DNA from: Escherichia phage KEP4
Reading direction: 5' to 3' (one strand)
Sequence record: PP047754
DNA: 64,000 nucleotides
The first letter of the stretch is position 1. Every line of letters starts with the position of its first letter. A model generated the notes under the pieces. It worked only from the letters and a program-made list of their open reading frames with translations. It was not told the origin of the DNA and ran no database searches. Positions 60,285 through 60,370 of the stretch are shown one piece after another. The position numbers and the translations under genes were made by a program.

Positions 60285-60370
60285 TTGCTTCAACTGGATT
60301 CGAACCAGTGACCTCAGGCACCTTGTTCTCTCGAAACTTTCCTGCGCTCTACCACTCGAGCTATGAAGCA
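60285..60370 (-). tRNA. atypical tRNA-like gene, 86 nt, expanded anticodon arm
   Basis: Perfect 7-bp acceptor stem TGCTTCA/TGAAGCA, D arm GCTC-AGTGGTA-GAGC, T arm ACTGG-TTCGAAT-CCAGT, but CAGG/CCTG stem encloses about 22 nt instead of a 7-nt anticodon loop. Confidence 0.4.

Follow-up and report, generated by a model that had tools for sequence, protein, structure and literature searches.

A tRNA-shaped RNA gene of Escherichia phage KEP4 with a hairpin module in place of the anticodon arm

Introduction

Several RNAs resemble tRNA, or are processed like it, and do not decode. Non-decoding tRNA-like RNAs include the stable RNAs C and D of phage T4, the tRNA-like domain of YrlA (a bacterial Y RNA) and mascRNA, and the P4 CI and P1 c4 RNAs are processed by RNase P and do not decode. 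In the laboratory, recombinant RNA is stably expressed in E. coli by building it into a tRNA in place of the anticodon arm, the engineered "tRNA scaffold". To our knowledge, none of the natural examples is a tRNA body with a swapped arm that is common to another RNA family. A related paper of the tRNA-scaffold group is PMC3753655.

Here we describe a gene in the tRNA cluster of Escherichia phage KEP4 (record PP047754), within a stretch of 64,000 nucleotides that we call the window. We consider, with a probability of roughly two in three, that it is a non-decoding tRNA-shaped RNA gene composed of a phage tRNA-Ile(GAU) body and a module, and that it is a functional carrier of the hairpin in that module. 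In a full-text literature search, neither the gene, nor the module, nor the second RNA family that shares it was found described, and transcript, processing or binding data for the gene were not found either. The chimeric nature, the selection and the link to the second family thus appear to be undescribed in the searched literature, while the annotation of an odd tRNA at this spot is already in the databases.

Results

Location and tRNA architecture

The gene is 86 nt long and follows tRNA-Met, tRNA-Asn and tRNA-Ser, in this order, on the minus strand (Table 1). It starts 3 nt past the encoded CCA of tRNA-Ser and 6 nt past its discriminator, and not at the 4 nt given in an earlier note on this DNA. 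A terminator-like hairpin further downstream is likely the end of the transcription unit of the cluster; this assignment is only suggestive, because shuffled sequence is expected to give at least as many such hits as the region does.

Table 1. Features of the tRNA-like gene, of its cluster and of the cloverleaf RNA that shares the module. Positions refer to the window, unless a locus is named.
Feature	Position	Strand	Remarks
tRNA-Met	61620-61695	(-)	cluster member (ARAGORN, Rfam)
tRNA-Asn	61131-61206	(-)	cluster member (ARAGORN, Rfam)
tRNA-Ser(GCU)	60374..60462	(-)	ARAGORN; Rfam 56 bits; immediately upstream of the tRNA-like gene
Whole tRNA-like RNA gene	60285..60370	(-)	86 nt; 5' end 60370, discriminator A 60285
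Acceptor stem, 5' strand UGCUUCA	60364..60370	(-)	pairs with 60286-60292
D arm GCUC-GAGUGGUA-GAGC	60346..60361	(-)	G18 G19 present; position 14 is G
Module CAGG AAAGU UUC-GAGA-GAA CAAGGUG CCUG	60315..60344	(-)	30 nt; replaces the anticodon arm
Inner hairpin UUC-GAGA-GAA	60326..60335	(-)	predicted; four-base G-N-R-A loop; scan with loop bases free
CAAGGUG, 3' side of internal loop	60319..60325	(-)	invariant in all copies seen
T arm ACUGG-UUCGAAU-CCAGU	60293..60309	(-)	Rfam, fold, variant alignment
Acceptor stem, 3' strand UGAAGCA	60286..60292	(-)	
Terminator-like hairpin, then UCUUUUUGUC	60037..60059	(-)	consensus scan; suggestive
Cloverleaf RNA copies	L010:11706-11797 (HK620-type prophage); L128:1500-1606; L129:1500-1607; L130/L131:1500-1640		

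The tRNA shape proposed in the earlier note, with its 7-bp acceptor stem, was borne out. Rfam gives a full-length match to the tRNA model RF00005 (model positions 1-71), exactly on 60370-60285, with 48.7 bits and an E value of 2e-8, the gathering score being 29. The acceptor stem consists of seven standard pairs, and the gene has a D arm, a T arm and a class I variable loop. U8, G18 G19 and the T-loop UUCGAAU are all present. The D and T arms, described earlier as canonical, are both there, but at position 14 the D loop has G, where A is near-universal. This position is C in variant L093, and A in the tRNA-Ile allele described below, the Agtrevirus copies and the Gamaleyavirus copies; the non-A base in KEP4 and L093 suggests some relaxation of the tRNA core. 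At the 3' end, the discriminator of the KEP4 gene is followed by UCA and not CCA, and A73-CCA is encoded in many Ackermannviridae copies.

As for the third arm, the two halves of the anticodon stem (4-bp CAGG/CCUG) are separated by 22 nt, where RF00005 expects 9. Both the Rfam alignment and the minimum-free-energy fold, a cloverleaf with an extended third arm, agree with the helix around about 22 nt seen in the sequence at first reading. A 5-bp anticodon stem with a 7-nt loop holding U33, an anticodon and a purine at position 37 is absent; the earlier note had likewise seen no standard 5-7-5 arm. Compared with shuffles, the whole RNA is not significantly more stable (z -1.05 to -1.5). ARAGORN with default settings makes no call at 60285-60370 in the window.

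In terms of aminoacylation identity, pair 3:70 is C3-G70 and not G3.U70, and the variable arm is not long. IleRS needs the anticodon, which is missing here, AlaRS recognises G3.U70 and SerRS a long variable arm.

Exchange of the anticodon arm

The sequence around the gene is 100% identical to Salmonella phage kage and 99.8% identical to SFP10 (Kuttervirus, Ackermannviridae). A sequencing error, named earlier as one way out, is excluded because the same sequence recurs in about 150 independent phage records.

Orthologous tRNAs were compared, as the earlier note had recommended. A minority of Kutterviruses, among them UTK0004, Mooltan, STML-13-1 and phage 241, hold a canonical tRNA-Ile(GAU) in the same slot. 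The two alleles are identical in acceptor stem, D stem, variable loop, T arm and flanks, and differ in the arm, where UUCCC-CUGAUAA-GGGAG of tRNA-Ile gives way to CAGG-AAAGUUUCGAGAGAACAAGGUG-CCUG. About 25 Kuttervirus records carry the tRNA-Ile allele (at least 90% identity) and about 129 the module allele, a ratio of about 5:1 in favour of the latter. Short junction bases are shared, GCG before the module and, in Agtrevirus, U after it. Judging from these alignments, the anticodon arm is entirely replaced by the module, and there is no 13-nt insertion. The count of 13 extra nucleotides given earlier holds (22 against 9 nt), but its framing was misleading, since the whole arm was exchanged. 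With its anticodon arm swapped for the module, the tRNA-like RNA would therefore be unable to decode.

On the contrary reading the gene encodes a decoding tRNA, for instance tRNA-Pro(AGG) with a 15-nt intron or tRNA-Leu, and the extra nucleotides are cut out, or else tolerated, before it is used. ARAGORN with introns allowed, another of the recommended checks, does call tRNA-Pro(agg), with the 15-nt intron AAAGUUUCGAGAGAA at position 31/32, and several GenBank records give tRNA-Pro or tRNA-Leu here. We rejected this call as an artefact: its stem has a G.A pair, it has A33 and not U33, U37 and not a purine, and the intron lies at a non-canonical position. Moreover, when all 13-nt excisions were made in four variants, none gave a 5-bp stem with a 7-nt loop, and none gave four pairs with U33 and a purine at 37; allowing loops of 8 and 9 nt did not yield a canonical arm either. 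The proposed "anticodon" also lies within CAAGGUG, which is equally invariant in the cloverleaf RNA described below, where an anticodon role is impossible.

No tRNA splicing endonuclease is known from enterobacteria, and where bacterial tRNAs have introns, these are group I introns that splice themselves and measure at least 200 nt. The gene fits neither the archaeal/eukaryal 37/38 type of intron-containing tRNA nor the group I type. The intervening sequence considered in the earlier note is thus unsupported, because the arm is not restored by any excision and a group I intron would have to be far longer than 13-15 nt. Altogether, a decoding tRNA is barely credible. The replaced arm and the non-canonical intron model account for the mixed labels of this spot, which is a pseudo "tRNA-OTHER" at the equivalent position of RefSeq SFP10, and tRNA-Pro, tRNA-Leu or unannotated in other records. 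A small protein is a further label given to the gene.

The module and the cloverleaf RNA

The module contains CAAGGUG, which is invariant even in scans that leave the arm content unfixed, as well as in the variant alignment. In a scan with the four loop bases free, the loop tetranucleotide was GGAA, GGGA, GAGA or GAAA in all 52 loci; the evidence for a G-N-R-A loop is confined to purine transitions. Folding predicts an alternative inner pairing, GCUU/AGGU, for some module variants; the inner hairpin UUC-GNRA-GAA is one of these two predicted pairings. The isolated module folds weakly, as a hairpin of -3.7 to -5.6 kcal/mol (z about 0).

A scan of IMG/VR found the module in two contexts only, the tRNA-like gene and a non-tRNA element of about 92 nt. 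On metagenome contigs there were 14 matches to the module pattern, each in one of these two contexts, and in bacterial chromosomes, represented by one genome for each of 185,579 species, there were none. A search of the 64-kb window for antisense targets found no further site matching the module complement. With permissive thresholds, Rfam 15 returned only "tRNA" for the tRNA-like gene and no known family for the module. Judged by eye, the consensus of a kink-turn, a sarcin-ricin loop and a CsrA GGA site did not fit the module, nor did a Shine-Dalgarno-like AAGGUG or mimicry of 16S or 23S rRNA.

The second context is an unannotated, tRNA-shaped RNA, here called cloverleaf RNA, present in hundreds of enterobacterial phage and prophage sequences. 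Its core is GAAUGCGCAGGCUGAUGCGC ... GCCGGAGAUCAGCRCCGGC, and in one large subfamily the module is its anticodon-like arm. In lambdoid and P22-like prophages the element of about 92 nt lies between the Q antiterminator gene and the holin gene, as in locus L010, which HK620 and HK633 match at 100%. Siphophage swi2 and several Klebsiella phages have it too, as do many more phages in versions with a different arm. Its usual place is between or beside phage tRNA genes, or else the leader of the late operon, which is where lambdoid phages keep tRNA genes. The Agtrevirus module and the cloverleaf arm of HK620, HK633, swi2 and Klebsiella phages share an identical stretch of 34 nt.

The predicted fold has a 7-bp outer helix, the hairpin GCGCA-GGCUGA-UGCGC, the module and the hairpin GCCGG-AGAUCAGCR-CCGGC (z -2.4). 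The last of these stacks directly on the outer helix, and the loops of the two hairpins are complementary. Of 91 distinct sequences, 88-97% have a standard pair at each of the seven outer positions, with 3 to 5 pair types per position, so that covariation in this helix is extensive. Pairs 2-7 are 41-66% standard after partner shuffling, and beyond 9 pairs the pairing is at background. By these pairing statistics, the cloverleaf is a real structured RNA with tRNA proportions. Its third arm, between invariant core halves, takes at least 82 different sequences of 26-50 nt, of which the module occurs most often. Where copies have the module in common, it varies less than their outer helix and variable loop, and this argues for constraint on the module sequence.

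No match at the cloverleaf coordinates was found with Rfam 15 at permissive thresholds, and none to the cloverleaf core in the 64-kb window with up to 3 mismatches. The KEP4 gene has a 7-bp outer helix stacked on a 5-bp hairpin, together with the module arm, and lacks the core hairpins with complementary loops. By sequence and architecture, the relation is one of a shared part and a resembling plan, and not of membership.

We also weighed a role at the level of DNA, in which the 30-34 nt would be conserved as a recombination or nuclease recognition site that promotes arm exchange, the RNA being incidental. The 34 nt identical in two unrelated gene bodies, the cloverleaf arm as a replacement hotspot between strictly conserved flanks and the transfer of the segment between phage families would all suit such a site. 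Variation within the module, however, keeps RNA features (one-strand changes of G-C to G.U, and G-N-R-A loops), its orientation is always that of the surrounding RNA genes, and the loci examined show no nuclease or recombinase gene as a consistent neighbour. We regard this explanation as very improbable.

Some further observations concern the cloverleaf loci. Lambda, at 44785-44900 (L359:985-1100), in the late leader past the 6S terminator, keeps the conserved hairpin CACAACAGGUAAGAGCAUU ... AGUGCUCUUUCCGUUGUG, which precedes the cloverleaf in other phages and has a variable tip; the cloverleaf itself is reduced there to a degenerate remnant. The Pas/STnc100 prophage small RNAs belong to the same late-leader region and are other RNAs, not the cloverleaf. 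Two tRNAs by the cloverleaf (L131:2186-2259 and L130:1744-1817) have the anticodon AAU (loop CUAAUAA), and a near-identical tRNA of swi2 (L128:1708-1781) has CAU (loop CUCAUAA), the difference being a single change of C34 to A34.

Conservation and spread to N4-like phages

We compared seven distinct tRNA-like sequences from two lineages: four from Ackermannviridae (kage type, L093, Agtrevirus SKML-39 type and L103) and three from N4-like Gamaleyavirus (pSb-1, L352 and L355). All 161 stem cells in these variants are standard pairs, as against 33-45% when the 3' partners are slid by 1-3 columns; since the diversity is small, few events lie behind such statistics. The acceptor stem keeps all seven pairs in each variant, and five of them show two-sided changes between the Ackermannviridae and the Gamaleyavirus copies. 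The five pairs of the T arm are invariant, and its loop varies by G/A only (UUCGAAU or UUCAAAU). Among the Gamaleyavirus copies, C-G and U-A alternate at pair 2:71, and G-C and G.U at the last pair of the outer module stem.

By our own count on the alignment, the four Ackermannviridae variants differ by about 14 substitutions, all at unpaired positions (D loop, two internal-loop positions, the two middle tetraloop bases, variable loop and T loop). With random placement over 46 paired and 40 unpaired sites, this has a probability of about 2e-5, or about 5e-4 when each D-loop block is taken as one event.

KEP4 and Agtrevirus SKML-39, which belong to different subfamilies, are 100% identical in tRNA-Ser and about 90% in the tRNA-like gene, with 150-nt flanks that are essentially unalignable (52-58%). 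A neutral relic would be expected to resemble the flanks, so that decay of this gene seems unlikely. Part of the conservation could come from repeated gene conversion by cloverleaf copies and not from functional selection.

Furthermore, the module has reached a second phage family. The corresponding slot of Gamaleyavirus IME11 is occupied by an ordinary tRNA whose acceptor strands are GUCCACU/AGUGGAC. In pSb-1, L352 and L355, acceptor strands of the Gamaleyavirus type surround a D arm, module and variable loop of the Kuttervirus type, and the interior of the chimera was therefore copied into the homologous tRNA gene of an unrelated family. On the evidence of these mixed strands, the transfer is a horizontal gene conversion, followed by retention through further divergence.

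These data bear on the possibility, raised in the earlier note, of a pseudogene: a tRNA-Ile inactivated by accidental recombination with a cloverleaf gene, now neutral or a tRNA-shaped spacer that helps RNase P to process the neighbouring RNAs, with a functionless module. Descent from a functional tRNA and the loss of decoding do hold, and RefSeq labels the gene a pseudo tRNA. A functional tRNA-Ile allele occupies the same slot, A14 is lost in KEP4 and L093, CCA has become UCA in KEP4, and the junction bases GCG and U (the latter in Agtrevirus) are compatible with illegitimate recombination. The many arms of the cloverleaf would likewise fit a position whose content is free. It is the neutral evolution that fails: none of the seven variants has a stem-breaking change despite about 10% divergence, and the flanks are far less conserved. 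The chimera moved into Gamaleyavirus and was retained with compensatory changes in at least three diverged genomes, the module is less variable than the outer helix among cloverleaf copies sharing it, and in Kuttervirus records its allele is about five times commoner than tRNA-Ile. On balance we think the pseudogene unlikely, though clearly the most serious competitor. The non-decoding tRNA-like RNA, also among the options first listed, is supported by the same evidence: stems kept in seven variants and two phage families, with conservation far above that of the flanks.

Other RNA-like elements of the cluster and of related phages

The region holds several other notable segments, all on the minus strand. 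A 150-nt RNA at 60125-60274, 10 nt downstream of the tRNA-like gene, has an acceptor-like 7-bp helix (GAGUGUG/CGCACUC), a T arm (UCGGG-UUCGAUU-CCCGA) and two long arms. It folds at -49.1 kcal/mol (z -3.3), and in this predicted fold looks like another, larger tRNA-shaped RNA. Next, a 125-nt segment at 60994-61123 is closed by GUCGGGU/GCCCGAC and has a T-arm-like GGGGG-UUUGAAU-CCCCC; low-stringency ARAGORN reads it as a tRNA-Ile(gat) that would have a long extra arm and an intron of 32 nt, and the fold is weak (z -1.7). The 135 nt at 61234-61368 are a "tRNA-OTHER" in the GenBank record of kage and a protein in other records, with an ORF of 44 codons, and neither ARAGORN nor Rfam supports a tRNA there.

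A tmRNA-like tag region at 63208-63243 (wider limits 63117-63591) encodes ANDNTFLAVA and two stops. It occurs also at L131:1310-1350 and L129:~1322-1357, and the IME11 tag is ANDDVVLMAA. The context upstream of ANDNTFLAVA is very like the resume region of E. coli tmRNA. With the Rfam permuted-tmRNA model, the region scores 33 bits in IME11 and 20.6 bits in the window, sub-threshold in either case, and ARAGORN calls a permuted tmRNA at very low stringency only. The element has blastn matches in 776 phage records, and all 60 sampled rows were unannotated or overlapped only a "hypothetical protein" CDS.

A further hairpin, at 63118-63150 and at L131:1413-1436, has the conserved loop GGUGUGAUUAAUAAU (fold z -4.9). 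Its stem is wholly different in each phage, being GACGGGAG/CUCCCGUC here and GCCC/GGGC in IME11 and UPM2146. A tRNA-like fold drawn by eye at 63012-63092 was not reproduced by the minimum-free-energy fold and was dropped.

Odd third arms occur elsewhere too. IME11 has two further unusual tRNA-like genes (L131:1709-1786 and L131:2104-2179), one with a closed hairpin GUUG-UGCA-CAAC for the anticodon arm and an encoded ACCA end, the other with a 6-nt anticodon loop. An unrelated metagenomic phage (L138:3964-4016, minus strand) has a 33-nt third arm CCCC...CCC-GCAA-GGG...GGGG with a G-N-R-A loop and an extended-arm cloverleaf fold. Extended, closed anticodon arms may thus be a recurrent feature of phage tRNA-like genes. 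A scan for long arms in the same tRNA body returned mostly intron-bearing tRNA-Tyr genes of giant viruses, which are unrelated.

Discussion

What the comparisons establish, at the level of sequence, is a chimeric anatomy, allelism with tRNA-Ile, the lack of an anticodon loop, selection on the stems and the module, transfer into a second phage family, and a second RNA family with the same module. The functional part of our preferred reading, a carrier of the hairpin, goes further. The tRNA-like RNA would be co-transcribed with the tRNA cluster and excised by the tRNA-processing enzymes of the host, with RNase P acting at the 5' end, and trimming and CCA addition or repair at the 3' end. The mature RNA may then accumulate as a stable L-shaped molecule that presents the hairpin at the anticodon position.

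The hairpin most likely binds a host factor, with a putative role as decoy, sponge or adapter. A host factor seems the likelier partner because no phage protein gene was seen beside the module in the loci examined and the carriers, from unrelated phage families, share only their Enterobacteriaceae hosts. More tentatively, and with somewhat more doubt than belief, the module can be pictured as a portable aptamer or decoy for a host factor, possibly in counter-defence, placed on tRNA-shaped carriers that exchange arms. If this were true, it would amount to a natural "tRNA scaffold" system spread across Ackermannviridae, N4-like, lambdoid and P22-like phages and siphophages of Enterobacteriaceae.

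The gene is carried by about 150 sequenced phages, including the therapy-relevant Kuttervirus phages CBA120, SFP10 and Det7. At a minimum, tRNA counts and codon-usage arguments for these phages are to be corrected. The finding also connects the gene with a large family of tRNA-shaped phage RNAs that lacks annotation and lies where phages have their tRNAs. If the carrier reading is right, the tRNA fold would serve as a stable chassis for another RNA function, in parallel to the laboratory trick. The two natural alleles in one slot of otherwise similar phages, a decoding tRNA-Ile and a module carrier, offer a simple experimental handle.

Comparison with known systems

A close relative is the Kuttervirus tRNA-Ile(GAU) allele, in the same slot after tRNA-Ser, whose own arm is a normal 5-7-5 with GAU; the KEP4 gene differs from it by the 30-nt module without an anticodon loop and by G14 in the D loop. 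The cloverleaf RNA lacks D and T loops of the tRNA type and has two hairpins with complementary loops in their place; both its arm and the 7-bp outer helix are hypervariable. In function, the nearest analogues are natural non-decoding tRNA-like RNAs and the engineered scaffolds. Among the former, stable RNAs C and D of T4 also lie within a phage tRNA cluster, and we liken them to the KEP4 gene by description only. Finally, tRNA scaffolds follow the same design, a tRNA body with a cargo hairpin for the anticodon arm. They are artificial, whereas the KEP4 gene, as read here from sequence alone, is natural, conserved and transferred between phages.
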